This document shows, piece after piece, positions 2,976 to 19,403 of a stretch of DNA of 64,000 nucleotides. Made by a program: the position numbers and the translations under genes. This stretch comes from an uncultured Candidatus Saccharibacteria bacterium (GTDB taxonomy: Bacteria > Patescibacteriota > Minisyncoccia > UBA6257 > 1-14-0-10-44-23). The DNA lies in contig CAZJVT010000001.1 of NCBI GenBank assembly GCA_964549935.1, positions 27,922 to 91,921 on the forward strand, read 5' to 3'. A model generated the notes under the pieces. The model was given only the letters and a program-made list of their open reading frames with translations, was not told the DNA's origin and made no database searches. Within the stretch, counting starts at the first letter, position 1; every line of letters starts with the position of its first letter.

Positions 2976-4823
2976 ATGACCTCACTCAACCCAGACCAAG
3001 ATCGTGCCGTAAACCATCCAGGAGGCCCACTTTTGATGGCGGCTGGTGCCGGATCGGGCAAAACCAGGGCTTTGACGAGCCGTTTAAAGGCGCTTATTGC
3101 CCGGGGAATACCGCCGCACGAAATCGTGTCGATTACCTTCACTAACAAAGCCGCCAAAGAGATGCGCGAGCGCGTTTTTGGTAAAGAGCGAGCCGAGATG
3201 AAGTGGACGCCTTATTTTCCTGTTTACGGGGAACCTTTCATCGGTACCTTCCACTCGTTTGGCGCCAAACTTCTTAAGAATGAGGCTGCGCTGCTCGGAC
3301 GAACGCCGGCTTTTTCGATTTTTGATGATGATGACTCGGCGGGCATCATCAAACAAATTCTCAAGGCGATGGATTTGAGCAAAGAGCTCTTTAAGCCAAA
3401 AGTGCTGGCTGGCCGCATCAGCTCGCTAAAGAGCGAACTCAAGGGCATCTCCGAACTCTACGAGTCCCCGGACAACCGTGACCAAATTTTCGCCGAGATT
3501 TTTACGCGTTACGAACAGGCTCTTAAAGCAAATAATGCCTTCGACTTCGATGACCTGATCGCCAAACCGGTGACGCTGTTTCACTCGCACCCGGAGATAC
3601 TGCAAAAATATCAAAAGCTTTTTAGCCACATCCTGGTCGACGAGTACCAGGACATCAACACCTCGCAGTACCAACTCGTGCGACTCCTCGCGCGTGAGCA
3701 TAAAAATATCAGCGTGGTCGGCGATGACTTCCAATCAATCTATGCATTTCGCGGTGCCGACTTCCGTAACTTTTTAAATTTTACGAAGGACTGGCCAAAT
3801 GCCACGCTCATTAAGCTCGAGCAGAACTACCGCTCAAGCGCCAATATCATCGAGGCCGCCAATGCCGTCATTAAAAACAACACCGTCCAGACACCAAAAG
3901 ATTTGTGGACCGAGAATCCGGCGGGGGACAAGGTTCGCATTGTAGCAGCAAACGACGGCGATTCAGAAGCCGCCTGGATAGCGGGTGAGATTTGGAATCT
4001 GCGCCGACAAAACCCGGATGCCGAGATCGCAATTTTATATCGCACTAATGCGCAGTCGCGCGCGATTGAGCAATCGCTGCTTTCGGCCAATCTTCCTTAC
4101 AAAATCTTTGGCGGGCTAAAGTTTTACGACCGCAAAGAAATCAAAGACGTCCTCGCCGGACTTCGTTTGGCCAACAACCCGCTCGATACTATGAGCGCCG
4201 AGCGACTCCAGGCCTCACTCGGCAAACGCGCGAGCGCACCGGTTATCACCGCCATGCAAGCGGCAGGAGACAGGGGCCAGGAGACAGGAGACAGCGCAGA
4301 GAAAAAAGGGATCGCCGTGATCATCGATACCTTTATGCGCTCTGCCAACTACTTATCATTTTTGGAAGAAAAGTTTACCAACGCCCAGGAACGCACAGAA
4401 AACATCATGGAGCTTGTGCGTTTTGCCGGGGAGTTCGAGAGCCTCGCGGAGTTTCTGGAACGTGCCTCGCTGCTACAATCCGCTGATACACCCAGCGATG
4501 CGCAGGGAAGTAATGCAAACCCGGTTAACCTGATGACGATTCATATCGCCAAAGGTCTGGAGTTTGACTACGTCTTCATCATCGGCGTTAATGAAGGTAT
4601 GCTGCCGCATGAGCGCTCGATGGATAAGCTCGACCAGGTAGAGGAGGAGCGCCGCTTGATGTACGTCGCGATGACTCGAGCCCGCAAGCGGCTCTACGTG
4701 CTCTTTCACGCCTTTGCCAGCCGTTTCGTGTATGAAATCCCGCGAGATATTTGCGAATTCATCAGCTGCGATGGCTTAAGCGACAAGCTGCGAGATGAGG
4801 ATGAGATGTGGATCGAAAACTAA
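2976..4823 (+). CDS. UvrD/PcrA/Rep superfamily-I DNA helicase
   Basis: N-terminal LNPDQDRAV...AGAGSGKTRALTSR Walker A and helicase motifs throughout, plus a C-terminal VAMTRARKRL motif. Confidence 0.8.
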   Translation: MTSLNPDQDRAVNHPGGPLLMAAGAGSGKTRALTSRLKALIARGIPPHEIVSITFTNKAAKEMRERVFGKERAEMKWTPYFPVYGEPFIGTFHSFGAKLLKNEAALLGRTPAFSIFDDDDSAGIIKQILKAMDLSKELFKPKVLAGRISSLKSELKGISELYESPDNRDQIFAEIFTRYEQALKANNAFDFDDLIAKPVTLFHSHPEILQKYQKLFSHILVDEYQDINTSQYQLVRLLAREHKNISVVGDDFQSIYAFRGADFRNFLNFTKDWPNATLIKLEQNYRSSANIIEAANAVIKNNTVQTPKDLWTENPAGDKVRIVAANDGDSEAAWIAGEIWNLRRQNPDAEIAILYRTNAQSRAIEQSLLSANLPYKIFGGLKFYDRKEIKDVLAGLRLANNPLDTMSAERLQASLGKRASAPVITAMQAAGDRGQETGDSAEKKGIAVIIDTFMRSANYLSFLEEKFTNAQERTENIMELVRFAGEFESLAEFLERASLLQSADTPSDAQGSNANPVNLMTIHIAKGLEFDYVFIIGVNEGMLPHERSMDKLDQVEEERRLMYVAMTRARKRLYVLFHAFASRFVYEIPRDICEFISCDGLSDKLRDEDEMWIEN

Positions 4824-5620
4824 TTATTGCTATGGGAGAAAAGCTTGGCCAACATTTTTTAATTAACACTGGGGCGATAACAAAAATTATTGCTGGACTC
4901 CAACTGCAAAAAGGGGAGGGCGTTATTGAAATTGGCCCAGGCGCGGGAGCACTCACGAAGCCGCTCGCCGAACTCTGCGCTCAATTAAACTGTAAACTGC
5001 AGTGTATCGAAAAAGATCCTGAATTAGTTAATTCGTTAGCTAGTGAATTTGTTAGTTCGCAAAACGTAGAAATAATCAGCGGAGATGCTCTTATTGAACT
5101 TCCGAAGCTAACTAACCAACTAACCAAGCAACTAGCTAACTATAAAGTAGTCGGCAATATCCCGTACTACATCACCGGGCACTTGCTGCGCACGATAGGG
5201 GAGCTCGAGCACAAGCCGGCGGTTACAGTGCTCATGATCCAAAAAGAAGTGGCGGAGCGCCTTACCGCAGAAGCTGGAGCAAACAATCTGCTCGCCGCTG
5301 CGACCCAGATTTGGGCAGATGCAGAACTCCTTTTTAAATTGCCACCGAAAGACTTCGACCCGCCGCCGCAGGTTTGGTCTGCGGTTATTAGACTCACGCA
5401 AAAAAAATCTCAACCGACACTGGAGGCAGCGAAAAAGTATTATGACGCGCTGCATGTCATTTTTAAGCAACCGAGAAAAACGCTCCTGAACAATTTGAGC
5501 GAAAAAGTCAGCAGGGAAGAGGCTTGCGAGCTCCTCGAATCTCTCAAATTACCCGAAAAAACTCGCCCTCAAGACCTCTCTCTTGAGCAGATTCAGAGAC
5601 TGGCGGCTACGCTCGCCTAG
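4808..5620 (+). CDS. rsmA: 16S rRNA (adenine1518/1519-N6)-dimethyltransferase RsmA/KsgA
   Basis: LGQHFL motif, GPGAGALT SAM-binding motif, 270 aa. Overlaps the helicase 3' end by 16 nt. Confidence 0.8.
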   Translation: MDRKLIIAMGEKLGQHFLINTGAITKIIAGLQLQKGEGVIEIGPGAGALTKPLAELCAQLNCKLQCIEKDPELVNSLASEFVSSQNVEIISGDALIELPKLTNQLTKQLANYKVVGNIPYYITGHLLRTIGELEHKPAVTVLMIQKEVAERLTAEAGANNLLAAATQIWADAELLFKLPPKDFDPPPQVWSAVIRLTQKKSQPTLEAAKKYYDALHVIFKQPRKTLLNNLSEKVSREEACELLESLKLPEKTRPQDLSLEQIQRLAATLA

Positions 5621-5713: not shown

Positions 5714-6460
5714 ATGAACTATAAAATCGTATCAGTTGGCGTCCTTTTGCTTGCATCTACAGTGGCAGGGTTAGTTTTATTTACGAAAAACTCCGAACAA
5801 GTATTTAAAGCCCCGGAAGGGGCTATCGCGAAACAAGATATTTTGAAGGCCCCTGACCCTCAAACGATCCGAGCGACTCTGCCGACAGTGACCAACCAAG
5901 TTGCCCAATCTATCGCGCAAGACATTCTTAACCGCAATCCACAGGGCCCGCAACCGTCCAAAAACCTAGCCGGGGTAAGCAGCATAACCGCTCTTGACCC
6001 TAAACTCGTCGCAAGCAAAATTCTTGAAGAAGACGTACAGAAAGCGACGACTGCTATTTTTGCGGGGGCGCCGAAATCAGAAGAAATAAATCAAAGTTCT
6101 TCGGCTTCACCGGCCGAATACTTAAAGAACAGGGGCGAAATTATAAAAGCGGCTCAGTTACGACTAGCTCCTTATCAAGGTAAAAAATTTACAGACGCAA
6201 CCCTGACAGTAATGCGCGACACAATCCGATCAACGCTGGGAGCAATGAACGCATTGCAGGTTCCACCAAGCCTCATCTCAATCCACAGCGAGCAGGTGCG
6301 TCTTTTGAAGGCTCAATTCGCTATTTTCGACAACATTCTGAACCGCGACACTGACCCCGTCGCCGCCTCTGTTTCAATCTCTCTCATACAAAAGGTTAAC
6401 GAAGACCTTGCAACGCTAAGCCGAACAATTAAGGCTTATATAGCACAGCACTCTTCTTAA
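5714..6460 (+). CDS. hypothetical protein with N-terminal transmembrane/signal segment (first gene of T4SS-like operon)
   Basis: MNYKIVSVGVLLLASTVAGLVLF hydrophobic N-terminus. Co-directional and contiguous with downstream genes. Confidence 0.4.
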   Translation: MNYKIVSVGVLLLASTVAGLVLFTKNSEQVFKAPEGAIAKQDILKAPDPQTIRATLPTVTNQVAQSIAQDILNRNPQGPQPSKNLAGVSSITALDPKLVASKILEEDVQKATTAIFAGAPKSEEINQSSSASPAEYLKNRGEIIKAAQLRLAPYQGKKFTDATLTVMRDTIRSTLGAMNALQVPPSLISIHSEQVRLLKAQFAIFDNILNRDTDPVAASVSISLIQKVNEDLATLSRTIKAYIAQHSS

Positions 6461-6463
6461 AAT

Positions 6464-8473
6464 ATGCGAAGCTGGTTCTCAAAAACTATAACAAGCGTCG
6501 TGCTTCTCACAATAATTGGGAGCATGATTGTGTTTCCACAGCCGGCATCGGCAGTTATACCAGTCACAGAAGACAACCCGCTGGTCCTTGTGCCAGAAGC
6601 GGAAACTTCTATCGCAACCAACGCAACTGCGATAACGTCCGCTGAAACTTCCATCGCAGTCGGTCTTGATGCATCAGCGAACATCGCGAACCTTGGGCAA
6701 AAACTTTTTGAGTGGGCCCAAACGACCCTTATCCAGAGCATCAAAAAAGCCCTGCTTGATTACTTAGTAAACCGAGTCATCAATTACATAAAGGGCGCAA
6801 AAGATGGTGGTTTTATTGGTGATTGGCAGTCGTACCTTTCGGGCGTAGTCGCGACGCAACTACAGATTTTCGGTCAACGAGTGGTAGGCGTAGATATTTG
6901 CGCTCCATTCAGCGCTCAACTCAAATTAGCTTTCAATCTTCCGCCAGTGCAAGAATTTGGTGACAAAATAACTTGTACCTTCGACCAAATCGGCGAGAAT
7001 ATTCAAGACTTCCAAAGCGACTTTCAACACGGGAAATGGCTGGCATATAGTAAATCGTGGGAGTCAAACAATAACGGTTATGGAGTTTTCTTGACTGCCT
7101 CGCTCGCCCAATCAGCTGATGTCATTGCCGCCAAAGAAACTTCGCTTAGCGAGGCTGTTTCCGGGCAGGGCTTCTTGAGCAAAAAAGTCTGCACAGGTAA
7201 GCTACCGGAGCCAGATTCATCGAAAGGGGAGTTGCCCGGCCCGGATATCGACGGAGAAAATGGGCCGAATGATGACCCCGCGACCTGCTCTATTGTAACA
7301 CCGGGAGCCGTTGTAAGTGGCGCAGTGACCCAGGCGATGGGGGCTGATTATGGCTACATTAATAGTCTGACTGGGACTGACATTGGTCCTTATATCGCTG
7401 CGATTGCCAATGCCATGGTCGGCCGCATCTTGGATGAAGGTCTCGGCTTGGTAGCCAAGGCGGCAAGCTCAGACCCGCCAGACATCAACAGTTATGTCAA
7501 TGTTGCGAGCGTCACTCGTTCAGCCGCGCAACGCTTCCGTAATGAGAGTCAGCGAATGAAGGTCTCTGTGCGGGACTCAATCCAGGACCGCCTTACGGCG
7601 CAGGCCTTCGTCACAAGTGCCTCAACCACGTGGCTAAAGTTTACTCATAATCCAGATGACATAATCCAGGACGCGATTGACCAAATATCTACAGCGCGCC
7701 AGGTTCTTACCTACACCTATAATGAGCTAAGCAAGGTAATCAAGCGGTCGCAAATAAAAACCTGGCCTAATGGAGTGCCGAGCCTCTGTTCGCCAGTTAA
7801 AAATTTGGCCTCTATCGACAACACCGCACTGCCGGGTATCCAAAAACGAATCGCTTTAGCAAGCGAAGCTCTTGATACTCTTGCGATTGCCCACGATGAC
7901 TACCCGGAACTTGACCCAGAATTTGTTGTTATCGCTACGACGACTAGATTTTCTACCGGGAATGACAACGATGCTTTCTTGGAGCAAATCGCGGATGCTT
8001 CTGTAGACAGCCTCGGACTTGGCCCAGCAGATGTCGATCCTTCGGAAGAACACAACATTGATCAGCTAGCAATATTAAAAGAGGTGCAGTATGAATTAGA
8101 TTATCAACTTCTCGAGAACACCACGAGTACTCAAGCTCGCCTCGGGGACTTGAACAACGTACTTGGAGACAGCGCAGTCAATAATGCGCGCCAATTCAAA
8201 AATGCGATGCAAAAAATCGACAACGACATCGAGAAGGTCTTTAAAGTTGCAACCGCCTACGCGGATCGTCTCTCGAAGTGCTTGAAGCCTCGCGACGAAA
8301 ATGATCTCGATAATGGAGTTGTGGTTGGATGGACGGCGAACGACCCAGGAGATGAATCAATCGGGAAGCCGGCACGAAACCCCGGCTTCCCCTGGGAAAC
8401 CGACGCTGACATACAAAATCAAACCGAAACGATTGATAATGCAACGTCCTCGGACGACTACGCGCCACAATAA
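6464..8473 (+). CDS. large secreted hypothetical protein (669 aa) in T4SS-like operon
   Basis: Signal peptide (VVLLTIIGSMIVFPQPASA), no internal stops. Starts 4 nt after the upstream stop. Confidence 0.45.
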   Translation: MRSWFSKTITSVVLLTIIGSMIVFPQPASAVIPVTEDNPLVLVPEAETSIATNATAITSAETSIAVGLDASANIANLGQKLFEWAQTTLIQSIKKALLDYLVNRVINYIKGAKDGGFIGDWQSYLSGVVATQLQIFGQRVVGVDICAPFSAQLKLAFNLPPVQEFGDKITCTFDQIGENIQDFQSDFQHGKWLAYSKSWESNNNGYGVFLTASLAQSADVIAAKETSLSEAVSGQGFLSKKVCTGKLPEPDSSKGELPGPDIDGENGPNDDPATCSIVTPGAVVSGAVTQAMGADYGYINSLTGTDIGPYIAAIANAMVGRILDEGLGLVAKAASSDPPDINSYVNVASVTRSAAQRFRNESQRMKVSVRDSIQDRLTAQAFVTSASTTWLKFTHNPDDIIQDAIDQISTARQVLTYTYNELSKVIKRSQIKTWPNGVPSLCSPVKNLASIDNTALPGIQKRIALASEALDTLAIAHDDYPELDPEFVVIATTTRFSTGNDNDAFLEQIADASVDSLGLGPADVDPSEEHNIDQLAILKEVQYELDYQLLENTTSTQARLGDLNNVLGDSAVNNARQFKNAMQKIDNDIEKVFKVATAYADRLSKCLKPRDENDLDNGVVVGWTANDPGDESIGKPARNPGFPWETDADIQNQTETIDNATSSDDYAPQ

Positions 8474-8479
8474 ACTCTT

Positions 8480-10879
8480 ATGGCTGCATTTCTTAAAAAG
8501 ACAAAGTTGCTAAAATGGCTCATCTGTAGCGGCTTTGTATTGACAATAGCTGCAGTGGTGCTTTTGCTACCTTCCCACTCGGCAAATGCTGCTTGGTACA
8601 ACCCAATCGACTGGGTTACGGGTAGCTTTTCAATGTTCATCAATGCCGCGCTGCTTGGAATTCCTTACATTTTCGGCTTAGTTGGCGGCTCGATCCTTAC
8701 ATTGGCGAGCCTCTTAACCAGCTATTTCTTTACCCTCAACACCGAGATACTGCCCGACAAGTTCCATATGATAGAAAATGGGTTTCGCATTTGCTTGGGC
8801 ATCGCAAACCTCATCTTTGTCATCGCACTCATCATTATTGCTTTTGCAACCATCTTGAATGTCCAGGAATATTCTGCGAAAAAGCTTCTTGGAAAACTCA
8901 TCGTAACTGCAGTCCTCGTTAACTTCAGCTATTTAATTGTCGGCGTCTTTCTTGATATGAGCCACGTACTCACGATGTTCTTTATATCCGGTGGGGGAGT
9001 GGCTAATGTCGGGGCAAAGTTCGGCGAAAGCATCGGCGCTATCTTGCAGCCACAGAAATTCTTGGTGACGCCAGACATCGCGAACCTATCAACTACGGTC
9101 TTTTCCTCTGAATGGTTACAAATGGTGCTTGGAGCAGTTATGGGCTCTATTTTTACCTGGATTGCCGCTATCGTCATGCTTTCAATCGCCATAATGTTCC
9201 TCGTCCGATATATCTACTTAGCGGTACTCATCATCCTAATGCCTCTTGCCTGGTCTCTACCTCTGATCCCGGGGATGAGCGAAATGAGCAGTAAATGGTG
9301 GAGCAAGTTTACACAGCAGGTTCTTTACTTGCCCGCCGCCACGTTCTTTATATACCTTTCGATGAGATTAGCGCTTTCCCTGCAGTCATCACATGACGGA
9401 TTCTCAACCGACCTCGCAAACACAACCACTTCCTACAGCAACCTTCCGTTCGCTCCCCAGCTTATCATGCAGATGATCATCCCAACAGGCTTCCTGGTCG
9501 CATCACTGATAGTCGCCAGCAAACTGGGAGGGGCGGGAACTGGATTCGGCCTTAAAATGGCGAATAAAGTAGCTGGCTTTGCGGAAAAATATGCAAGAGG
9601 TGTCGGCAGCAAAGTTTACAGCTACCAGAGAAATGGCAAGAGCATCGAGGCTGGGGTTAAAAAGCTAGCTGGCGCCGGAAGCAATGCTTTAACATGGCAG
9701 GGGCCTCAGGGTGATGGCAAACTTAAGAAAGGCCTCCGCGGCTTAATTCAAGGTGGTCGCGCAGTAGCTACCGGTGGAGCATCGAAGCAAATTGCAGGTC
9801 AACTAACTGAATTTAGCAAAGACAGGGAAAGCGCTCTGGAGGCCGCCAAAGCTTCACTGCACGACCTTGGAGAAGATCAACTTAACGACATGTATCATGA
9901 CGCGAAACATGCTCCGAAAGATGATACTGAATTCTATGCTGCAGTGGAGCATGCCGTCGAAGAAGGCGATATTGACCACCTGGACGCCTGGATGAGCGAT
10001 GACGCAACTCGCGCACGTATCGTCGCAACGGCAAAGATGTTTGATCCGAAGGCCGCTAAAGACCTCACGAAGAGCAAAACTCTTAAGGCCCTTGCGCAGT
10101 ATGACCCTCCGCATGCCGCCCTTATCACGGGACAGACCACCGAAGCCGTTCTTGGCGGTATGGATGCCAAGGCCTTACAGTCTATGAAAAAAGATGCTCT
10201 CTCGGATGAGAAGGTTATTAATGGCCTAACCCCAAGCCAGCTGGCAACTGCGGCTAGGGGCTCTGGCGAGCGTGAGCAGCTCATTAGCGATGGGCTCAAC
10301 GCCGTTGCCGCAAAAGAGATGGCTGCCCTTAATGACACAAGCCCTGAGGTAGTGGCGCTGAAAAACGAGGTGGCTGCAAAAAAACTTGAAATGGCTGCGG
10401 CAGTGACTGCAGGAAATAAAGAGCTCGAGAAAGAACTTCAAAGAGAAATCAATAAAATTGAACGTAGCATCAATAATATTCCGAAAATCAAATCGGCTGG
10501 AGCCGAACTTGCAGCTCTGGCTGGCAGTCTAGGATCAGCTAAAGATAAAACGGGCTACTACGGCTCCCTTGAAGATGCGAAAGAAGAACTTAAGGCTGCT
10601 CTAGCGCGTGGCGATACGGTGGTTGCTAAAAAATTTGCAAACTCGATGGATATTATTCAAAAACAAATCAGCGACGCTCGCGATAAACAGAGCAGGATCA
10701 TCTCTGACATGGACCTTAACGACCCGGTGATGAAAACGAACACCGCCCTGCGCGATTCACTTAAGGGCATCGACAGTTTGGCGAATAATATCGGCTCCGT
10801 TGTTTCGCAAGAGAAGAAACCGAAAAAGGAGCATGCTCATGCTAAAAACTATTTTGGCGGGGGCGGAGGTGGCCATTAA
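8480..10879 (+). CDS. VirB6/TrbL-like polytopic membrane protein with long C-terminal coiled-coil extension
   Basis: Signal/anchor followed by ~7 hydrophobic helices in the first ~350 aa. A ~450-aa hydrophilic A/K/E-rich tail ends in GGGGGGH. Confidence 0.5.
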   Translation: MAAFLKKTKLLKWLICSGFVLTIAAVVLLLPSHSANAAWYNPIDWVTGSFSMFINAALLGIPYIFGLVGGSILTLASLLTSYFFTLNTEILPDKFHMIENGFRICLGIANLIFVIALIIIAFATILNVQEYSAKKLLGKLIVTAVLVNFSYLIVGVFLDMSHVLTMFFISGGGVANVGAKFGESIGAILQPQKFLVTPDIANLSTTVFSSEWLQMVLGAVMGSIFTWIAAIVMLSIAIMFLVRYIYLAVLIILMPLAWSLPLIPGMSEMSSKWWSKFTQQVLYLPAATFFIYLSMRLALSLQSSHDGFSTDLANTTTSYSNLPFAPQLIMQMIIPTGFLVASLIVASKLGGAGTGFGLKMANKVAGFAEKYARGVGSKVYSYQRNGKSIEAGVKKLAGAGSNALTWQGPQGDGKLKKGLRGLIQGGRAVATGGASKQIAGQLTEFSKDRESALEAAKASLHDLGEDQLNDMYHDAKHAPKDDTEFYAAVEHAVEEGDIDHLDAWMSDDATRARIVATAKMFDPKAAKDLTKSKTLKALAQYDPPHAALITGQTTEAVLGGMDAKALQSMKKDALSDEKVINGLTPSQLATAARGSGEREQLISDGLNAVAAKEMAALNDTSPEVVALKNEVAAKKLEMAAAVTAGNKELEKELQREINKIERSINNIPKIKSAGAELAALAGSLGSAKDKTGYYGSLEDAKEELKAALARGDTVVAKKFANSMDIIQKQISDARDKQSRIISDMDLNDPVMKTNTALRDSLKGIDSLANNIGSVVSQEKKPKKEHAHAKNYFGGGGGGH

Positions 10880-10896
10880 TCTACTAGCTAATTATT

Positions 10897-11622
10897 ATGG
10901 CTGATGAAATAAAATATCCTTTCGAGTTACTGCCCGCTGAAATCAAAAAGTGGCTCATCTCCGATGATGCCACTGAATTGGTCAGCAGGATTAACCGCGA
11001 ATGCATGCTTGAAGGAGGAAAAGCTCGTGCTGTGGCAACGCTCATCACGTGGATCGCTATCGACGCAGTCGCGCCGGAAGACACAGCTAATGAATTAATA
11101 GCAAGCTTTGGTTTAGAGCCCGCGCAGGCGCAGATCGTCGCCAAAGAAATACAACAAAAGATTTTTCTGCCTATAAAGCCGCTCATGCGCGCCAAATTAG
11201 GTATAGATATCGAAAAAATAACGACGGGCCCTCTTGCAGCTCCGGTCGCCGGTCCAGCCGCCCAGATCACTAAACTCGCCAAACCATTTGTAGCCGACAT
11301 TCGCAAGCCGGAGCAGGTCGCGAAACCGCAAGCAGCGATGCCACAGGCAAAACCAGTGGCGCCGACAAATACTGCGAAAAAGGGGGAAATCAATACACAA
11401 TTTGGCTTTGTCGAAGTAATGCCGACTCCGCCTCCAGGCTTCAAAGAGGAGTCGCTCGCTCCACCGGCAACCGCGATGCAGACAGCGAAGCCGCCTGCGC
11501 AGCCAGCACAACATCAGGCTGCGCAACCCTCCGTGGCGCAACAAGCTCCCGGACAGCCGGAGCAAGCGCCGAACGATGTCGTGCCATACAAAGACGAGCA
11601 TCCCTTGGACCCGAAGAGTTAG
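10897..11622 (+). CDS. hypothetical protein with Pro/Ala/Gln-rich C-terminus
   Basis: 241-aa ORF. Its stop codon is the first TAG of a TAG-rich array. Confidence 0.4.
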   Translation: MADEIKYPFELLPAEIKKWLISDDATELVSRINRECMLEGGKARAVATLITWIAIDAVAPEDTANELIASFGLEPAQAQIVAKEIQQKIFLPIKPLMRAKLGIDIEKITTGPLAAPVAGPAAQITKLAKPFVADIRKPEQVAKPQAAMPQAKPVAPTNTAKKGEINTQFGFVEVMPTPPPGFKEESLAPPATAMQTAKPPAQPAQHQAAQPSVAQQAPGQPEQAPNDVVPYKDEHPLDPKS

Positions 11623-11651
11623 CTAGTTAGCTGGTCGTTGGTTAGTTAGCC
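11619..11651. repeat. TAG-rich (GTTAGNN)n array; left arm of imperfect inverted repeat flanking the four-helix-bundle gene
   Basis: Sequence ttagctagttagctggtcgttggttagttagcc ends 1 nt before the ATG at 11653. It shares CGTTGGTTAGTT / GTTAGTTAG cores, in inverted orientation, with 12004-12038. Confidence 0.5.
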
Positions 11652-11652
11652 T

Positions 11653-12015
11653 ATGGCTGAAAACTTTAAAAGTCTGAAGATATGGCAGCAGGCGGAGTCT
11701 CTGACTGTTACAGTTTATGAGTTAACGAAGAAGTTTCCAAAAGAAGAAACATTCTCTCTCATTGACCAAACTCGTAGAGCAGCTAATTCGGTCGGTGCCA
11801 ATATTGCTGAGGCCTCTGGCAGATGGGGAACAAAGGACAAAATACAATTCCTTATGTTTGCGCGTGGCTCGATTATGGAAGCACGTAGCCACCTCTCGCT
11901 AGCCCATAGACTAAAATACCTCTCAACAATAGACTATACTAAGTTAGAGGGTGAATACGACCTTTTGGCGCGCAGTCTTAACGCGTTTATCAAAAGCATC
12001 AAGCCAACTAACTAA
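11653..12015 (+). CDS. four-helix-bundle protein (23S rRNA intervening-sequence protein / Avd-like family)
   Basis: 120 aa. WQQAESLTVTVYELTKKFPKEE...ANSVGANIAEASGR...ARGSIMEARSHL matches the family signature from memory. Confidence 0.65.
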   Translation: MAENFKSLKIWQQAESLTVTVYELTKKFPKEETFSLIDQTRRAANSVGANIAEASGRWGTKDKIQFLMFARGSIMEARSHLSLAHRLKYLSTIDYTKLEGEYDLLARSLNAFIKSIKPTN

Positions 12016-12038
12016 CGACGAACTAACCAACGGCTACT
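12004..12038. repeat. TAA/CTAA-rich array; right arm of inverted repeat flanking four-helix-bundle gene
   Basis: Sequence ccaactaactaacgacgaactaaccaacggctact contains the gene's stop and ends at the ATG of the next gene (12039). Confidence 0.5.
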
Positions 12039-12401
12039 ATGCAGTTCCAAGTCCCTCAATTCTTAGATGTCCAAGACACTATCTTTGGCCCGCTTACGCT
12101 TAAGCAGTTTCTTTACTTTGCCGGCGCAGGCGGCTTAAGCTTCATACTTTTTTTTGCGCTACAGACTTGGCTCTGGGCGGCGATAACATTCTTAATGGCT
12201 CTTTTGGCAACCGCGCTTGCATTCGGCAAATTTAATGGCCGCCCGATTATCTATATGCTTCTTTCGGCGCTTAAGTTTGCCTGGCAACCGAAACTTTACC
12301 TGTGGCAGTATTCTTCGCCGGCACAGCAAATGCCGGTCCTGCACGGTAGCGAGCAGATGGAGAGGGGATCGGCGCTCAAAAATTTGCTTGCAAAGCTGTA
12401 A
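12039..12401 (+). CDS. PrgI/VirB3-like small membrane protein
   Basis: VPQFLDVQDTIFGPLTLKQFLYFAGAGGLSFILFF resembles the PrgI-family N-terminus (K.ED.IffGLT.RQ...) followed by two transmembrane helices. Sits directly upstream of VirB4. Confidence 0.5.
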   Translation: MQFQVPQFLDVQDTIFGPLTLKQFLYFAGAGGLSFILFFALQTWLWAAITFLMALLATALAFGKFNGRPIIYMLLSALKFAWQPKLYLWQYSSPAQQMPVLHGSEQMERGSALKNLLAKL

Positions 12402-12419
12402 CAAAAATCGCGCCGGTGA

Positions 12420-13121
12420 GTGCGTGATATACTAAAAGATATGGCGCGTAAAGATGAAGCACTGCCGACGCAGCAATTTGTTGACGTTGACGCTGTCGAA
12501 AACGGCGTGCTTATTCTTCGCGGCGGAAGCCTCCGCCAGCTCATCGCAGTGAGCGGCCTCAACTTTGATCTTAAAACCGAAGACGAGCAAAATGCCATCA
12601 CCTTTGCTTACCAAAACTTCATAAATTCGCTTAATTTCACGCTGCAAATCTTCGTCCATTCGCGCAAAGTAAACATCGACCAATACGTTGAAGGGCTTAA
12701 GGGCGTAGAGGCGGCCGAAACTAATCCGCTCCTCAAAGCGCAGGTAGGCGAGTACCGCGAATTTATTAAGTCTTTTGTCGCAGAAAACGCCATCATGCAC
12801 AAGTCTTTCTACGTCGTCGTGCCTTACGATGTCGTAGAAATCGGCGGACACTCTTCGGCCAATGGGCTCTTCGGATTTTTAAAGAAGAAGGATGCAAACG
12901 CGGAGCTTGCCAAAGCTGAGGAGAGCGAAGACCGAGCGCGGACGATGGGCCAGCTCGCGCAGCGCGTCGACCAGGTAATCTCTGGACTTAGGCAGATCGG
13001 CCTTAAGGCGCTGCCTCTTGGCGACCAGGAGGCGATTGACTTGCTCTACAATCTTTACAACCCGGGGACAGCTGAGCGCAAGGGCCTGGAATTGTCACAA
13101 ACGCCGCAACAACCGCGCTAA
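12420..13121 (+). CDS. VirB4/TrbE/TraC conjugal-transfer ATPase, N-terminal domain (separate ORF, frame 0)
   Basis: QQFVDVDAVENGVLILRGGSLRQLIAVSGLNFDLKTEDEQ...FINSLN...LQIFVHSRKV resembles the VirB4 N-domain (vDDGVvl.kDGSLl..yef.G.Dl.s.tdEE...mLHVDAiRr). Ends with TAA overlapping the next ATG (TAATATG). Confidence 0.55.
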   Translation: MRDILKDMARKDEALPTQQFVDVDAVENGVLILRGGSLRQLIAVSGLNFDLKTEDEQNAITFAYQNFINSLNFTLQIFVHSRKVNIDQYVEGLKGVEAAETNPLLKAQVGEYREFIKSFVAENAIMHKSFYVVVPYDVVEIGGHSSANGLFGFLKKKDANAELAKAEESEDRARTMGQLAQRVDQVISGLRQIGLKALPLGDQEAIDLLYNLYNPGTAERKGLELSQTPQQPR

Positions 13122-13122
13122 T

Positions 13123-14826
13123 ATGAATGATCAGATTAAAAATATCATCGCCCCGGCCGGCGTCGAAATCTCGCAGAACAACATTAAAATTGGCGAGAAG
13201 TTCGCTCGCACGCTCTTCATTTTTACCTACCCTCGCTACCTTTCGACAGGCTGGTTCTCGCCAATTGTAAACTGCCCCGAACTTTTAGATATTAGCATTT
13301 TCATCAACCCGATTGATTCTGCGATGGCACTTAAGCAGCTACGACGAAAGGCGACGCAAATCGAAGCGCAGCTCATCGACAAGCAAGAAAAGGGGATTAT
13401 CCGCGATCCAATCCTAGAAACCGCGCAGCAAGACATCGAATCGCTGCGCGATGGATTGCAACAGGCCCGGGAAAACATCTTTGCAGTCGGCCTTTACATC
13501 ACAATGTACGCCGACTCGCTTGAAAACCTCGAGAAACTTGAGGCGAAGATCACAAACATGCTGGAGACACGCCTCATCTACGCAAAGCCAACGACCTTCC
13601 AGCAAATGGAGGCAATTAACTCTGTCTTCCCGATTGGTCGCGACAAAATCAACGTTACAACCCAGCTCAACTCCGGGCCGGTTTCATCCTTCTTCCCATT
13701 CATCAGCCTGAATATGACCTCAGACAGCGGTATTTTGTATGGTATTAACCGCCACAACAACACGCTCATTATCTTCGACCGCTTCAGCCTGGAGAATGCC
13801 AATATGGTCATCTTCGCTAAATCCGGTTCCGGAAAATCGTATGCCGCAAAACTTGAAGCACTGCGTCTTTTGATGACCGGCACCGACGTCATGATCATCG
13901 ACCCGGAAAACGAGTACGAAAAGCTTTCGACGGCAGTTGGCGGTAGCTACTTTAAAATCAGCCTCGCCTCTGAATATCACATTAATCCTTTTGAAATTCC
14001 GATTATTCCGAAGGACGAGGACCCAGGCGAGGTGCTGCGTAGCCACATTGTCACGCTGACCGGCCTCATCAAATTAATGGTGGGAGAGACTAACCCCGAG
14101 GAGGATACGGTCATCGACCGTGCACTCAATGAAACCTACGCCTCTCGCGAAATCATCCCGGGCAAAGACTTTTCAAATGCTACAGCTCCCGTCCTCAAAG
14201 ACCTGGAGACTGTCTTGCGCAATATGGAAGGTGGCGCCTCGCTCGCCGAGCGCCTGTACCGCTTCACCGAGGGCAGCTTCTCCGGCTTTACCAACAAGCC
14301 GACCAACATCGACCTCCGTAACCGCTTAATCGTCTTCTCAATCCGCGACCTTGAAGAGGAGCTTCGGCCGATTGCGATGTACATCGTGCTAAACTTCATC
14401 TGGAGCCTTATCCGCGGCAACTTTAAAAAGCGAGTCGTGATGATCGATGAGGCCTGGATTCTGATGAAAAACCGCGACAGCGCCACGTTTTTATTCGGCC
14501 TGGTTAAGCGTGCCCGTAAATATTTCCTCGGTATCACTACTATTACCCAGGACGTTGAAGACTTCCTTCTTTCTCCGTACGGTCGCCCGATTTTGACCAA
14601 CTCCAGCCTGCAGCTCTTGCTCAAGCAGGCCCCCGCAATGATGGACACCATCTCAAAGACCTTTAATCTCTCTGAAGGGGAGCGCCAGCTACTCATTGAA
14701 GCGGATGTCGGTCAGGGGCTCTTCTTTGCAGGCGCCAATCACGTTGCCATCCAAATCGTAGCCAGCTACCCGGAAAACCAACTGATTACGACCAACCCCG
14801 AAGAACTTCTTGCACAAGAGAAGTAG
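13123..14826 (+). CDS. VirB4/TrbE/TraC-family conjugal-transfer ATPase, C-terminal ATPase portion (frame +1 relative to the N-domain ORF)
   Basis: FARTLFIFTYPR motif, Walker A FAKSGSGKSYAAK and Walker B-region MIDEAWILMKN...GITTITQDVEDF. Confidence 0.75.
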   Translation: MNDQIKNIIAPAGVEISQNNIKIGEKFARTLFIFTYPRYLSTGWFSPIVNCPELLDISIFINPIDSAMALKQLRRKATQIEAQLIDKQEKGIIRDPILETAQQDIESLRDGLQQARENIFAVGLYITMYADSLENLEKLEAKITNMLETRLIYAKPTTFQQMEAINSVFPIGRDKINVTTQLNSGPVSSFFPFISLNMTSDSGILYGINRHNNTLIIFDRFSLENANMVIFAKSGSGKSYAAKLEALRLLMTGTDVMIIDPENEYEKLSTAVGGSYFKISLASEYHINPFEIPIIPKDEDPGEVLRSHIVTLTGLIKLMVGETNPEEDTVIDRALNETYASREIIPGKDFSNATAPVLKDLETVLRNMEGGASLAERLYRFTEGSFSGFTNKPTNIDLRNRLIVFSIRDLEEELRPIAMYIVLNFIWSLIRGNFKKRVVMIDEAWILMKNRDSATFLFGLVKRARKYFLGITTITQDVEDFLLSPYGRPILTNSSLQLLLKQAPAMMDTISKTFNLSEGERQLLIEADVGQGLFFAGANHVAIQIVASYPENQLITTNPEELLAQEK

Positions 14827-14872
14827 GTTCACTACCAAAAGGCATATTAATAATGCGGTATACTAAGAGGGT

Positions 14873-15583
14873 ATGATTACGGCTCGACGCTTATTAGCCC
14901 TCATCATCCTTAGCAGCACTCTTGCTACGGTCTCTTTCGCTTACGGCGCAGATCTGAGTACAGGGCTTGCAGGAAAAAAACCAGAAAAACAATTCGACCT
15001 TCTAATAACCTGGCGGTCAGAAAGCCAGGTGCCAACCTGGTACCAGGGGAGAGTTTTGCCAACAAAAAACAGCAAAATATATCTTTCCGCTCAAGGACTC
15101 CTGAACGGCAAGAATGTTGATCTGAGCAGTCATACAATAGCCTGGTTTATCGATGGCACCCAGCAAATGAGCGCTGTAGGTAAAACCGCCTTCTCTTTCA
15201 TAGCAGGCAAATATGCTGCCGCCAAATACACGGTGACCGCAAAAGTAGTAGAGAATGCTATCGAAGTCGCCAGCGGAAATACGTTGATACCTATAGCCCC
15301 ACCAAAGCTCGTTATCAATATTCCTTACGCAGACAGGACGCTTCCTCGGAATGACGCAATCCTTGAAGCTCTGATGTACTTTTTTAGTACTATAGATACT
15401 GCCCCTTCAACTTTCGCTTGGTCAATTAACGATATTAAAATGCCGCAATCGCAAATTTTTGGTCCGCTATTAAGCGCCTCTTTCGATGCCGCGGCATTAG
15501 ATGTCCCTGTCGCAGTGCGGATGCAAATAAAGGGCGCCTCAACCGCCTCTTTCGATGCCATTACTCATATCTCCATCAACTAG
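14873..15583 (+). CDS. secreted hypothetical protein
   Basis: Signal peptide LLALIILSSTLATVSFAYGA. 236 aa. Confidence 0.4.
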   Translation: MITARRLLALIILSSTLATVSFAYGADLSTGLAGKKPEKQFDLLITWRSESQVPTWYQGRVLPTKNSKIYLSAQGLLNGKNVDLSSHTIAWFIDGTQQMSAVGKTAFSFIAGKYAAAKYTVTAKVVENAIEVASGNTLIPIAPPKLVINIPYADRTLPRNDAILEALMYFFSTIDTAPSTFAWSINDIKMPQSQIFGPLLSASFDAAALDVPVAVRMQIKGASTASFDAITHISIN

Positions 15584-15584
15584 C

Positions 15585-16526
15585 ATGGGAAAAAGTAAAT
15601 TAAAGTGCTTCCTGGCCCTTGCTATTTTGGCGGTATCCTTTATGCTCCCGCAGCCAGCTGCTTTCGCGCGAGACGAGGCCCTTTTAGATAAAGATTTCAT
15701 AGTTCCGATAGCAGGCATGACAAAAATTGATATTTCTCCTGGTGAATATGTCAAAGCTGTTTATACTTGGGGAATAGGCATCGCGGCCCTTCTGGCTGTG
15801 CTAATGCTAGTGTTTGGAGGTGCGCAATATGTCCTTGCGGCGGGCTCCTTCGCAGAAGACTCAGCGGCTAAAGAGCGGATAAAGTCGGCAATTCTGGGTT
15901 TACTTGTCCTAGTTGGAGCAACGGTTATCCTTTCCGTTGTGAACCCCAACCTAACTGATCTAACATTAAATCCGCCGGATATCCTCACGGAAGGTGATCT
16001 CAAAAACCTTCAGGCAGAGTTTTCTTCTTTAAGCAAAAGTTTTAACACAAAGGATGCTTATGGCGATTACCAAGTTCAGCTCGATGATGAAACTGTCGCC
16101 AGTAGTATCGGCGCAAAACTCGCCGCTTCCGAAAAAGCAGCGAAGGCCGACCCTCTCCTGCAAACCGACCAGTACAATCAAAATATCGCAGAAATCAATA
16201 AATATTTTGACACATATTATAGTGACCCTGCATACGCCCAAAAAATTAAAACGGCGATGACCGCGCTAAGAACCAAGAGCGGCTTCCCGCCACCGACTGA
16301 CCGGGAGGTTTTAGATGAAGTCGCCCGTCGGAAGGCTACTGCGTATAGCAAAGTCACCGATGCGCTCAGCAACCAGGATGTTCCGGCGATTAAGGCCCAA
16401 AAACTGAAGTCTGAGACGGATTGGAATGCTAGAGCAGGCATAAAAGATGAAAAACTCCCGCAGACCCCGCCATCCGGGAATAGCAATGGTAATCATAGTG
16501 ACGGGCAGATGCAAGCTTCATTCTAA
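15585..16526 (+). CDS. candidate VirB2/TrbC-like pilin with long C-terminal extension
   Basis: Signal peptide (MGKSKLKCFLALAILAVSFMLPQPAAFA) followed by two adjacent hydrophobic helices (VYTWGIGIAALLAVLMLVFGG / ILGLLVLVGATVILSVV), the architecture of T4SS pilins. The 313-aa length is atypical. Confidence 0.3.
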   Translation: MGKSKLKCFLALAILAVSFMLPQPAAFARDEALLDKDFIVPIAGMTKIDISPGEYVKAVYTWGIGIAALLAVLMLVFGGAQYVLAAGSFAEDSAAKERIKSAILGLLVLVGATVILSVVNPNLTDLTLNPPDILTEGDLKNLQAEFSSLSKSFNTKDAYGDYQVQLDDETVASSIGAKLAASEKAAKADPLLQTDQYNQNIAEINKYFDTYYSDPAYAQKIKTAMTALRTKSGFPPPTDREVLDEVARRKATAYSKVTDALSNQDVPAIKAQKLKSETDWNARAGIKDEKLPQTPPSGNSNGNHSDGQMQASF

Positions 16527-16531
16527 AAACT

Positions 16532-17677
16532 ATGAATACGAAAAAGGGGTTAAAATTTATAATTCCTATCTCCCTCCTCGTGCTTGTTAGTGGGGGTATC
16601 TGGCTTTGGTACTCCTCGGAGAAAACTGTAAGTCCGCCTCCTGCTGCCGACACTACGGACTCACAAAATCCTTCTGTCTATCTTCCTGACGCGAATACTT
16701 CTGGAGGTACAACGAAGACGGATACTGCTTCTGGCGCAATGCTCCAGCGGGTCTCGGAAGGTTTTGTCGCTTTCTACTGGCTTGACCCGTCTGACCTAAG
16801 CCTATTTACCATTTCAAGCGCCGGGGCCATCACTGAAGCTCCATATCAGGGGACAGAAGAGGTCGTCTATGAAGGGGATGGCAAGCCGTTTGTCTCCGCG
16901 GTACCTTCGGCGAAAGGAGATGAGGTAATTCTAATAACCGGCTCTCCATCAAACCCCACCTTGGCAGTTATCAATGTGATCACGCGCAAACGGACTTTTC
17001 TGCCGTTCACTGCCCGGAGCGCAACCTGGCACCCGAATGGACGCGATATTGTTTTTTTGCGTGACTCTGACGCAAAGAACCCTGCCGGGCTTTACCTTTT
17101 TAATCTTGCGAAAGGCACCTCTTCGCTGCTAGGGGCTCTCTCGCTTGGCGACGTGAAACTATTTACGCAAAATCAAAACTCGATTGCCTTAGTGGAGCCG
17201 CCAAGCCTGCTCGCCCCAAGCTCCGCCTGGAGTTTTGACCTCACTAAGAAAACTCTTTCGCTAATCACTACACCACAGGCTGGTTTTATGGCCAGTTGGA
17301 GTAGTTTTGCTCCTTTTGACGCCCTGGCTTATGTTCCGACGGTAGGCGTTCGTGCTATCAGCGCAAAAGGAACAGCGATAACGCTCACATCCGCAAGCCT
17401 GCCGGACAAGTGCGCCTTCGGTAAATATGAAGCAGCCTATTATTGCGCTGTCATGAGAACCGTCCCAAAAGGCATGCCGGACAGCTACTTACAGAAAGCT
17501 GCCTACTCGATAGACTCACTTGTCGCATTCTCGCGCTCCGGCGAAAGTAAATTACTATGGGACAGCCAGGCGAAAGGTGAGCCTTTTGATGCAACTAATC
17601 TAAAACAAATAGGAGATACTCTTTATTTCATCAATAGATACGACAACAGGCTTTACTCGTTCGGCCCGATCAAGTAA
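16532..17677 (+). CDS. secreted/anchored protein, possible TolB-like beta-propeller
   Basis: N-terminal transmembrane helix plus a WHPNGRDIVFLRDSDAKNPAGLYLF-type repeat. Last gene of the operon, followed by a terminator. Confidence 0.35.
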   Translation: MNTKKGLKFIIPISLLVLVSGGIWLWYSSEKTVSPPPAADTTDSQNPSVYLPDANTSGGTTKTDTASGAMLQRVSEGFVAFYWLDPSDLSLFTISSAGAITEAPYQGTEEVVYEGDGKPFVSAVPSAKGDEVILITGSPSNPTLAVINVITRKRTFLPFTARSATWHPNGRDIVFLRDSDAKNPAGLYLFNLAKGTSSLLGALSLGDVKLFTQNQNSIALVEPPSLLAPSSAWSFDLTKKTLSLITTPQAGFMASWSSFAPFDALAYVPTVGVRAISAKGTAITLTSASLPDKCAFGKYEAAYYCAVMRTVPKGMPDSYLQKAAYSIDSLVAFSRSGESKLLWDSQAKGEPFDATNLKQIGDTLYFINRYDNRLYSFGPIK

Positions 17678-17685
17678 GCAAAACA

Positions 17686-17716
17686 TAAAACCGCCTTCCG
17701 GCGGTTTTATGTTTTT
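17686..17716. terminator. bidirectional rho-independent terminator
   Basis: aaaaccgccTTCCggcggtttt hairpin flanked by A and T runs, between convergent genes. Confidence 0.6.
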
Positions 17717-18146
17717 AAATCGGTTTGATGACGACGCAGCGGTCTTTGCCTTCACCGGCGCTCTCGGTCTTCACGTCTGGGCGCATCGAGAGCTCGGTGT
17801 GCACTAAACGGCGCTCGTAAGCATTCATGGCCGGCAGGCGAACCTCTGCCTTGGTTGCAATGACCTTCTGGGCGGCTGCTCGAGCAATCTCGAGGATCAG
17901 CTTTTCGCGCTCTTTGCGGTAGTTGTTGATGTCGATGACATACATCGGCTCATCAGTCTTACGGGCAAGGATTGAGGAGAGGTACTTCAAGTCCTTCACG
18001 AGGTCGGGGACGAGCTTGGCGAACCACTCGTCTTCGTCGGCGGTTACGCTCATGCGGCGGCCGGCCTCATCAATCTCAACGACGGCGTTGCGGAGGCCGA
18101 GGTAGCCGACTATTTTCTTAAGTTTCTCCGGAAGGGTTTCTGACAT
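17715..18146 (-). CDS. jag: Jag/KhpB RNA-binding protein (KH + R3H)
   Basis: R3H motif LPAMNAYERRLVHTEL. Position downstream of yidC. Confidence 0.7.
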   Translation of the reverse strand: MSETLPEKLKKIVGYLGLRNAVVEIDEAGRRMSVTADEDEWFAKLVPDLVKDLKYLSSILARKTDEPMYVIDINNYRKEREKLILEIARAAAQKVIATKAEVRLPAMNAYERRLVHTELSMRPDVKTESAGEGKDRCVVIKPI

Positions 18147-18147: not shown

Positions 18148-18852
18148 TTAGGAAGTTGTTTTATTTGCGGCGAACTGCTTGGTAATGCTCATCTGTTGGA
18201 AGATAGAGAAAATCGCGGTTGTCGTCAAGTACAACCCGATAGCCGCAGGCAGCTTGAACTGAAACATCACGTACGCGGTCATCACGGGGGCCAGGTAGGC
18301 CATATACTTCGTACTGGCATTTTGCTTGCCGCCGCGCGAACTCGTCTGCTTCACCATCATGTAGCTCTGGAGAAAGCTAAAAATAACGGTGATTGCGATA
18401 ATCACATAGTTCATTTTAGTAACATCGACGAGGCCAAGGAACATCGGGTTGATGGTCGCTGGGGGAGTGATGAACGAGTAAAGGTCTACAAGCGCCGCTG
18501 CGGTGATGCCTGTTAAGAAAATCCTGTACACCGCGAAAAGGATTGGCAGCTGCGCGAAGTTAAAGAAAATGGAAGAGAACGGGTTTGTCCCGTACTTCTT
18601 ATACATCGCCATCATCATCTCCGCCTGCTTGGCCTTGTCATCTTTATAGTCCTTTTGGATGCGCTGCATCTCCGGCTGCATCTGCTGCATCAACATCTGG
18701 CTCTTGAGTCCTTTATAAAAAATTGGATACAGGATGAAACGAATCGCAAGCGTCAGGGCGATAATTGCGATTCCAAGATCGCCGAAGCTAACATACTTAT
18801 AAGAAAGAACGAGGAGATTAAACAGCGGCTGGGTGATGAGTGTATGGAACAT
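18148..18852 (-). CDS. yidC: membrane protein insertase YidC (short form)
   Basis: 234 aa with five hydrophobic helices, a KGLKSQMLMQQMQPEMQRIQKDYKDD region, and rnpA-yidC-jag synteny. Confidence 0.8.
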   Translation of the reverse strand: MFHTLITQPLFNLLVLSYKYVSFGDLGIAIIALTLAIRFILYPIFYKGLKSQMLMQQMQPEMQRIQKDYKDDKAKQAEMMMAMYKKYGTNPFSSIFFNFAQLPILFAVYRIFLTGITAAALVDLYSFITPPATINPMFLGLVDVTKMNYVIIAITVIFSFLQSYMMVKQTSSRGGKQNASTKYMAYLAPVMTAYVMFQFKLPAAIGLYLTTTAIFSIFQQMSITKQFAANKTTS

Positions 18853-19191: not shown

Positions 19192-19326
19192 CTAGACGGT
19201 AAGCTTCTTGCGACCCTTACGGCGGCGAGCCTTGAGAACGCGCTTTCCATAGATCGTACGACTGCGCTTTAAGAAGCCATGGGTTCGTGCGCGCTTCTTC
19301 TTTTTAGGCTGGTAGGTTTTACTCAT
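19192..19326 (-). CDS. rpmH: 50S ribosomal protein L34
   Basis: [44 protein letters not shown]. Start placed at the internal Met of the longer track ORF. Confidence 0.85.
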
Positions 19327-19403
19327 ATATTTGTTTCGTTCTATGGTACAAGAAAAAAAATAAAATTGCAAGGGCTTGTTATAAAAAAACAACTCGACTA
19401 TAG

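Follow-up and report, generated by a model that had tools for sequence, protein, structure and literature searches.

Gene cluster with a predicted secretion core

We analyzed a 64-kb stretch of contig CAZJVT010000001.1 (the window). It contains a gene cluster that very probably encodes the T4SS (type IV secretion system) already published for Patescibacteria. The cluster comprises eleven co-directional open reading frames (ORFs), g1 to g11, which occupy positions 5714-17677 on the + strand. Their products are, in order, 248, 669, 799, 241, 120, 120, 233, 567, 236, 323 and 381 amino acids (aa) long. All eleven ORFs are intact. The distances between successive genes are 3, 6, 17, 30, 23, 18, 1, 46, -29 and 5 nt, with no gap above 46 nt. 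An earlier note on this DNA had described the region as an eleven-gene co-directional operon for a minimal type IV secretion or DNA-translocation apparatus in the style of Gram-positive bacteria or the candidate phyla radiation, and had argued against a conventional conjugative element. The predicted gene layout fits one operon, and the type of apparatus agrees with the published Patescibacteria system. Promoter-like and terminator-like consensus sites in the cluster show no excess over shuffled sequence.

The putative motor of the system is g8 (13123-14826, +, 567 aa), which is identified by its sequence as a VirB4 ATPase of the CD1110/MPF-FATA type. It matches the VirB4 CD1110 family model NF045971 with 395.4 bits (cut-off 325, E 4.9e-118) over profile positions 186-734 of 752, and P-loop_TraG (PF19044) with an E value of 4.6e-25. 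The Walker A motif AKSGSGKS is located at nt 13816 (aa 232-239), and the Walker B motif VVMIDE at nt 14434 (aa 438-443). The earlier note had staked its reading on a VirB4 profile match and on these motifs, and both are present. Relatives of this VirB4 were found in 80 species-level genomes, all of them Patescibacteria, with identities of 43-87%. The nearest are metagenome-assembled genomes of Ca. Harrisonbacteria, with up to 87% identity.

VirB4 had been taken as a single gene. Instead, the equivalent of its N-terminal domain is encoded by a gene of its own, g7 (12420-13121, +, 233 aa), whose product is TrsD-like. The profile matches of g7 are to TIGR00929 positions 18-184 (E 2e-6) and CD1110 positions 2-118; its match to TrsD NF041427 (E 1e-5) is under the model cut-off. 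The g7 stop codon TAA is at 13119-13121, and a single base separates it from the VirB4 ATG, which is in a different frame. Jointly, g7 and g8 tile the full-length VirB4 profile (CD1110 positions 2-118 and 186-734). A separate TrsD-like ORF of 190-490 aa is present in 70 of the 80 related loci, and in L001 and L005 a four-helix-bundle gene lies between TrsD and virB4. This arrangement rules out a frameshifted VirB4 pseudogene. The TrsD homologue in a more distant locus, L084, carries the TraC-like family PF26593. Separate TrsD and VirB4 proteins have been described in a phylum-wide survey, in which TrsD is the most abundant T4SS component in Patescibacteria (Quinonero-Coronel 2025, PMC12102498).

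Two smaller components were also recognized, as the earlier note had expected from a PrgI/VirB3-like and a pilin-like protein. The first, g6 (12039-12401, +, 120 aa), is a PrgI/VirB3-like small membrane protein. It matches PrgI (PF12666) with 37.1 bits (gathering score 27) and has a hydrophobic hairpin at aa 23-53; its match to TcpE is weak. PrgI is found upstream of TrsD/VirB4 in 44 of the 80 loci. The second, g10 (15555-16526, +), is a VirB2-like pilin of 323 aa, or 313 aa if translation begins at the ATG at 15585. Residues 68-129 match T4SS_pilin (PF18895) with 34.1 bits (gathering score 26.6), and a further match is to the Mbov_0395 pilin-like model NF045849 (E 2e-4). It has a signal-like segment and transmembrane (TM) helices at aa 69-87 and 111-129. 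After the pilin domain, the protein continues for about 190 aa in a C-terminal extension, which is variable. Homologues in related loci (L001-L026) range from 145 to 437 aa, and their extensions are poorly conserved and highly variable in length. If the pilin polymerizes, the extension would probably decorate the surface of the filament. The pilin gene is present in a single copy in the cluster.

The largest product is that of g3 (8480-10879, +, 799 aa), a probable extended VirB6/TrbL-like polytopic protein. Its polytopic part spans aa ~1-348 and contains 7 or more hydrophobic segments (aa 14-346). The remaining ~450 aa form a hydrophilic tail rich in Ala, Lys and Glu. Because it starts with a Lys/Arg-rich stretch, the positive-inside rule makes a cytoplasmic location of the tail probable. 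The tail shows weak Rad50/SMC-type matches at aa 613-767. For the 799-aa protein, a sequence-profile search of the PDB returned only coiled-coil noise. Homologues across Patescibacteria are 500-1,400 aa long, with poorly conserved tails.

The VirB6-like identity of g3 had been proposed in the earlier note together with the ~450-aa tail. The topology agrees with this proposal; a direct Pfam TrbL match was not found, and the supporting evidence comes from homologues and profiles. TrbL (PF04610) is matched by 7 of 28 g3 homologues from related loci (best E 1.3e-6). Two database homologues (P0171 and P0172) score 25.0 and 19.4 bits on TrbL, for which the gathering score is 25.9, and one of them carries the NCBI name T4SS protein. 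A tblastn search of plasmids with the TrbL-positive P0171 gave no match. In hhalign comparisons, the g3 family profile aligned with R388 TrwI/VirB6 (P=0.001) and pCF10 PrgH (P=0.035), in each case over the same stretch of the g3 family, which contains the invariant R243, L250, P255, P264 and W273. The gene order VirB6-VirB3-VirB4 is also that of prgH-prgI-prgJ in pCF10. Topology, TrbL matches of homologues, profile alignments and gene order together make a VirB6-like protein the probable assignment.

Accessory proteins and an inserted cassette

Five further genes, g1, g2, g4, g9 and g11, are interleaved with the core genes. The earlier note had considered their 248-, 669-, 241-, 236- and 381-aa products to be without recognizable domains and perhaps novel components. 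This holds for the first four proteins, but the 381-aa protein is, at the profile level, a TolB/WD40-type beta-propeller (E 2e-11). All five are real and conserved; the system to which they would belong has already been described. Four of them, g1, g2, g9 and g11, are predicted to be secreted or membrane-anchored and extracytoplasmic, because each has a single N-terminal hydrophobic segment.

The first gene, g1 (5714-6460, +, 248 aa), encodes a Paceibacteria-type accessory protein with one anchor or signal segment at aa 5-23. The remainder of its alignment appears alpha-helical by eye. It has no Pfam or NCBIfam match, and its profile found nothing below E 0.03 among PDB sequences. By profile it was detected in 15 loci, each time directly upstream of g2.

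The g2 product (6464-8473, +, 669 aa) is predicted to be secreted or membrane-anchored and mostly alpha-helical. It has a hydrophobic N-terminus (aa 5-23) and a conserved core at aa ~100-330 containing Cys and Trp. Invariant or near-invariant residues include C146, C171, C243, C275, W192, N203 and the TPG motif at 279-281. The four conserved cysteines would suit an extracytoplasmic protein. Exhaustive HMMER searches placed 5,255 representative clusters in the g2 family at E<=1e-3 and 2,069 at E<=1e-30, and no Pfam family recurs among 86 members. Structure prediction and Foldseek searches had been suggested for the proteins without domains. An AlphaFold2 model of g2 is mostly helical, with a pLDDT of 71.8, and Foldseek found no match to it with E<0.03 in the PDB or BFVD. 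In all 16 of 16 loci, and also in L084, the next gene downstream of g2 is the one for the VirB6-like protein.

Between the VirB6-like gene and PrgI is g4 (10897-11622, +, 241 aa), which occupies this place in 15 loci. Its product has no TM or other hydrophobic segment. An N-terminal domain of ~110 aa is followed by a variable, low-complexity tail rich in Pro, Ala and Gln (12.9% Pro in the protein), and conservation across 12 loci is limited to the N-terminal domain. No Pfam or NCBIfam match was found, and the profile gave nothing below E 0.03 against PDB sequences.

Directly downstream of virB4, a place that it occupies in 21 loci, is g9 (14873-15583, +, 236 aa). Its N-terminal hydrophobic segment at aa 7-25 is a signal or anchor, and the remainder is beta-rich. 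It has no Pfam match. Weak Ig-type matches in the PDB (E 0.02) and a BiPBP_C match of one homologue (E 0.003) tentatively suggest two Ig-like/beta-sandwich repeats.

The last gene, g11 (16532-17677, +, 381 aa), is the final gene before jag in 18 loci. It has an N-terminal TM segment at aa 7-25. Alone, it has no Pfam match, and one homologue shows sporadic beta-propeller Pfam matches. In the PDB, a profile built from 18 homologues matched the WD40 protein 2ymu with an E value of 2.3e-11, and structures of TolB with E values of 3e-10 to 4e-7. At the profile level, g11 is a predicted TolB-like beta-propeller of the TolB/PD40/WD40 type.

We compared the accessory profiles with known T4SS components. 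The g1, g9 and g2 profiles gave no hhalign signal against pCF10 PrgL, pCF10 PrgK or R388 VirB8 (P >= 0.098), and no similarity to R388 VirB5 was seen for the accessory profiles, including that of g1. VirB8, VirB5 or VirB1 identities for g1, g9 and g2 were dropped. The five genes were detected only in Paceibacteria-type loci. T4SS loci of Saccharimonadia, Microgenomatia and Gracilibacteria contain core genes only.

The machine could consist of the VirB6-like protein, PrgI, TrsD, VirB4 and the pilin only, with g1, g2, g4, g9 and g11 being unrelated envelope genes that share an operon near the origin. We consider this unlikely. It agrees with the missing similarity to PrgL, PrgK, VirB8 and VirB5, with the absence of the five genes from the T4SS neighborhoods of the three other classes, and with the fact that TolB-like propellers and Ig-like proteins are common in envelopes. 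However, the accessory genes are interleaved with the core, where g4 separates VirB6 from PrgI and g9 separates VirB4 from the pilin, and the gaps are short. Their order is invariant across genomes in which VirB4 is only 60-87% identical, and also in L084. In every case seen, g2 is beside the VirB6-like gene.

Probably not all eleven genes are secretion components. The fifth, which the earlier note did not mention, is g5 (11653-12015, +, 120 aa), a four-helix-bundle ('23S rRNA intervening-sequence protein') ORF within an inverted repeat. It matches PF05635 (E 1.9e-34) and TIGR02436 (E 7e-33), and the whole cassette extends over 11626-12032. One repeat arm spans 11626-11650 and the other 12003-12027; a perfect 12-mer is present at 11636-47/12021-32. 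The flank duplex has a dG of -61.8 kcal/mol (z -5.9). The gene is missing from most relatives, and in L001, L005 and L009 PF05635 genes occupy other intergenic slots, with two copies in L001. Further copies are at L001:7435-7900, L001:9612-9953, L005:9569-9990, L046:19326-19785 and L063:2684-3025. Exact inverted repeats of 12-23 nt, different in sequence for each copy, flank 6 of 9 PF05635 genes in the window and the related loci. Random intervals have a mean inverted repeat of 7.1 nt, and 2.8% of them reach 10 nt. The flank duplex z-scores of these genes are -4.5 to -10. To judge by these sequence features, g5 is probably an inserted hairpin-bounded cassette and no T4SS component. Such cassettes are reminiscent of rRNA intervening sequences cut by RNase III, and processing of the stem could split the operon mRNA.

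Chromosomal setting and relation to known systems

The cluster is bounded upstream by ksgA/rsmA (4808-5620, +; RrnaAD PF00398, E 1e-50), which is also the boundary in related loci. Downstream are jag (17715-18146, -; Pfam R3H) and yidC (18148-18852, -; Pfam 60KD_IMP), followed by dnaA (19279-20928, +; Pfam Bac_DnaA), dnaN (21145-22257, +; Pfam DNA_pol3_beta) and a class A penicillin-binding protein (PBP) gene. The cumulative GC skew has its minimum at ~16-22 kb of the window. The dnaA/dnaN neighbors and the skew minimum place the cluster on the chromosome, adjoining the replication origin.

The same order, ksgA-g1-g2-g3-g4-g6-g7-g8-g9-g10-g11-jag-yidC-dnaA-dnaN, is collinear in ~20 Paceibacteria-type loci (L001-L021, L026), which answers the earlier note's call for a synteny check in relatives. 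A distant g2 homologue on an ENA contig (L084) is found in the same gene arrangement. Of the 80 loci with VirB4 relatives, 44 have dnaA within 10 kb of virB4. The identities of VirB4 and DnaA to their window counterparts correlate with a Pearson coefficient of 0.97 (n=39), and those of VirB4 with DnaN, YidC and KsgA with coefficients of 0.90-0.94. The fixed collinear site and this co-divergence indicate a vertically inherited chromosomal system and no mobile element. The predicted genes form a Paceibacteria-type arrangement in a Harrisonbacteria-like genome, beside the replication origin.

Genes diagnostic of conjugation were not found in the window. Its 40 scanned ORFs include no type IV coupling protein (T4CP), relaxase or integrase family, and there is no second VirB4-like ATPase. 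This agrees with the earlier note, which had reported no VirD4, relaxase or integrase. All ORFs of at least 500 aa are housekeeping genes or cluster members. Pfam and NCBIfam scans of the cluster gave no VirB7-, VirB9- or VirB10-like match.

The published Patescibacteria T4SS is the closest known system. In the epibiont Southlakia epibionticum, a T4SS cluster is essential for epibiotic growth by transposon sequencing; it resembles Gram-positive conjugative systems and has pilins, with no recognizable coupling or relaxase proteins (Wang 2023, PMC10633639). The phylum survey found a monophyletic VirB4 clade related to MPF-FATA. TrsD, PrgI/VirB3, VirB6 and VirB2-like pilins are widespread near virB4, relaxases are almost always absent, and in Paceibacteria and Microgenomatia the T4SS adjoins dnaA, dnaN and ksgA (PMC12102498). 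In a 2025 review, the Patescibacteria system is already counted among the established T4SSs of the superfamily (PMC12857230). With the Patescibacteria-clade T4SS, which has been characterized genetically in S. epibionticum ML1 (SEML1_0006-0019), the window cluster shares VirB4, a separate TrsD, PrgI/VirB3, a VirB2-like pilin and, by indirect evidence, a VirB6-like protein. It also shares with this clade the lack of a nearby relaxase or T4CP, the dnaA, dnaN and ksgA neighborhood, and a VirB4 lineage that is 43-87% identical across classes. We are thus highly confident, on sequence evidence that for VirB6 is indirect, that the window cluster is this system.

There are also differences. S. epibionticum has an array of 6 pilins, whereas the single pilin of the window cluster is lengthened by a long C-terminal extension. 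Directly downstream of virB4, the window has no gene for a peptidase or lysozyme. In addition, the window has g1, g2, g4, g9 and g11, which are of Paceibacteria type only, and the inserted four-helix-bundle cassette.

The Patescibacteria T4SS lineage derives from monoderm MPF-FATA conjugation machinery. Conjugative MPF-FATA systems (pCF10 prgD-pcfC, pGO1/pSK41 trs, pIP501 tra and C. difficile CTn2) share with the window cluster the CD1110-family VirB4, the VirB6-VirB3-VirB4 order, a separate TrsD-type protein as in pGO1, and the lack of an outer-membrane core complex. Unlike them, the window has no recognized T4CP (PcfC/TrsK), relaxase, VirB1-like hydrolase (PrgK/TrsG), VirB8-like protein (PrgL/PrgD) or adhesin. 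In pCF10, the relaxase and coupling protein genes are within 12 kb of prgJ; neither was found in the window. Conversely, the window has a VirB2-like pilin, which Gram-positive systems lack. Its cluster is chromosomal, at a fixed locus, vertically inherited and off mobile elements.

Other systems resemble individual features of the cluster. Extended VirB6 paralogues of Rickettsiales combine the same polytopic domain with a large hydrophilic domain (PMC12857230), whereas g3 is extended only at its C-terminus, by one Ala-, Lys- and Glu-rich tail of ~450 aa. Bordetella Ptl, Brucella VirB and Helicobacter ComB are likewise non-conjugative and without a dedicated coupling protein (PMC12102498). However, these are diderm systems with VirB7/VirB9/VirB10 core complexes, and none of these is present in the window cluster. 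Judged by relaxase, T4CP and mobile context, the sequence places the cluster outside the conjugative MPF-FATA systems, and it is likewise outside the Ced and ComB importers: its CedB/CedD-type scores are below cut-off, and ComB-type VirB7-10 parts are missing. The system as such has been described before; only its lineage-specific accessory genes are unstudied.

The comparison with importers bears on a second alternative, in which the cluster is a DNA-uptake, competence-type T4SS like Helicobacter ComB or archaeal Ced. Together with nearby type IV pilus genes, it would import DNA from the host or the environment and so supply nucleotides. No relaxase or T4CP was found, as in ComB, and import of DNA or other macromolecules has been hypothesized by the survey authors (PMC12102498). 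VirB4 weakly matches the DNA-import ATPases CedB (E 4e-10) and CedD (E 8e-6), but these matches score 39 bits (NF041017, cut-off 700) and 24.7 bits (cut-off 600), and the CedB match reflects only the shared P-loop fold. The earlier note had pointed to neighboring pilB, comM, an LTD protein and a 5'-3' exonuclease as signs of a role in DNA uptake or host interaction. Of these, pilB (26693-28384), the LTD protein (30317-30859) and the exonuclease (31756-32631) are present in the window, as is RuvABC; comM is not among the ORFs scanned. However, the link is weak: pilB and the repair genes are at least 9 kb off, past dnaA/dnaN, among RuvABC, PBP and other unrelated housekeeping genes. The T4SS of S. 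epibionticum is essential, in contrast to its comEC-dependent DNA uptake, which is dispensable, and protein export or another role is preferred by Wang et al. (PMC10633639, PMC12857230). We regard a DNA-uptake system as improbable, somewhat more so than the accessory genes being unrelated to the machine.

A decayed integrative conjugative element, with a VirB4 pseudogene split by a frameshift and with loss of the relaxase, T4CP and integrase, would agree with a VirB4 of a family found on Gram-positive conjugative elements, with a VirB4 region in two frames and with a low cluster GC content at third codon positions (GC3), but is largely refuted, and very improbable, given the TrsD and VirB4 two-gene arrangement in 70 of 80 genomes, sometimes with an inserted gene, the eleven intact ORFs, the same chromosomal site with DnaA co-divergence (r=0.97), and the lack of an integrase among the scanned ORFs, with the sole tRNA gene of the window ~28 kb away.

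Upstream of the cluster, the gene order is an M23 peptidase gene (-), uvrD and ksgA. The M23 peptidase carries LysM and is located at 1819-2838 (-), 3 kb from the cluster, beyond uvrD and ksgA. This upstream arrangement is shared by L014. M23/LysM proteins are counted among VirB1-like candidates in Paceibacteria (PMC12102498), and this peptidase could be a cell-wall-opening partner of the cluster.

The rest of the window contains housekeeping genes for repair and recombination (RuvA, RuvB, RuvC, Fpg, UDG and the 5'-3' exonuclease) and for translation (ArgRS, IleRS, a class Ib (Trp/Tyr-type) tRNA synthetase, tmRNA and one tRNA), as well as PilB, CTP synthase, a Mur ligase and RNase J. Several other features were observed in this region. 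The IleRS-like ORF (53912-57463, +, 1,183 aa) has a histidine-phosphatase (His_Phos_1) domain at aa 510-660 as an insertion in its class I catalytic domain. A protein of the SLOG cluster-4 family is encoded at 42398-43054 (+; E 4.5e-34), and the stop-to-stop ORF enclosing it has a P-loop-like GKRGLGKT. The tRNA-Arg(CCG) gene at 45372-45444 overlaps the listed TTG start of a DsbD_TM ORF (45362-46180), so the true start of this ORF is further downstream. A thioredoxin-like protein (46182-47378) follows it, which fits extracytoplasmic disulfide handling.

Possible function of the cluster

By analogy with known T4SSs, a VirB4 hexamer would sit on the VirB6 channel, tethered at the membrane by PrgI/VirB3 and TrsD. 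It would power assembly of the VirB2-like pilus or conduit and movement of macromolecules across the single membrane and the cell wall. The anchored accessory proteins probably form a wall-spanning or host-contacting part, and would thereby stand in for VirB8, VirB1 and adhesins, which are missing. The homologous cluster of S. epibionticum is essential for epibiotic growth, and by analogy the machine would serve interaction with a host cell and not conjugation. Our guess is export or exchange of protein or another macromolecule, with DNA or nucleotide import as a minority chance.

More specifically, the accessory proteins may be structural parts of a distinct T4SS subtype. In such a subtype, g1, g2, the cytoplasmic g4, g9 and g11 would form a new wall-spanning and host-contact module replacing VirB8, VirB1 and adhesins, and the g3 tail would take the place of a coupling protein. 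We put this forward tentatively, as a possibility and short of an expectation.

Several observations weigh against the main reading of the cluster as a host-interaction T4SS. The g3 protein itself reaches no TrbL/VirB6 model in Pfam or NCBIfam. Sequence-profile comparison recognized no VirB8-like or VirB1-like protein in the cluster, and the roles proposed for g1, g2, g4, g9 and g11 are drawn from conserved position and predicted location only. The check for T4CP and relaxase covered the 64-kb window, and VirD4-like genes are often far from virB4 in Patescibacteria genomes (PMC12102498). T4SS essentiality has been established for one Saccharimonadia species only (PMC10633639), and that species, S. 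epibionticum, is without the five accessory genes. Finally, GC3 is 0.53 in the cluster and 0.625 in ten + strand housekeeping genes, and overall GC is 0.493 compared with 0.52, despite the vertical co-divergence with DnaA.

Few machines of the ultrasmall Patescibacteria are known to be essential for their epibiotic way of life, and the T4SS is one of them. The window cluster is no new kind of system. Our analysis indicates that Paceibacteria, the largest class, keep a fixed eleven-slot predicted operon for it at the origin. Its five accessory genes are conserved and carry no annotation, and the single species studied genetically does not have them; g2 belongs to an orphan family of very large size. 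The five genes offer concrete candidates for those envelope-spanning or host-contact parts that the machine appears to lack.

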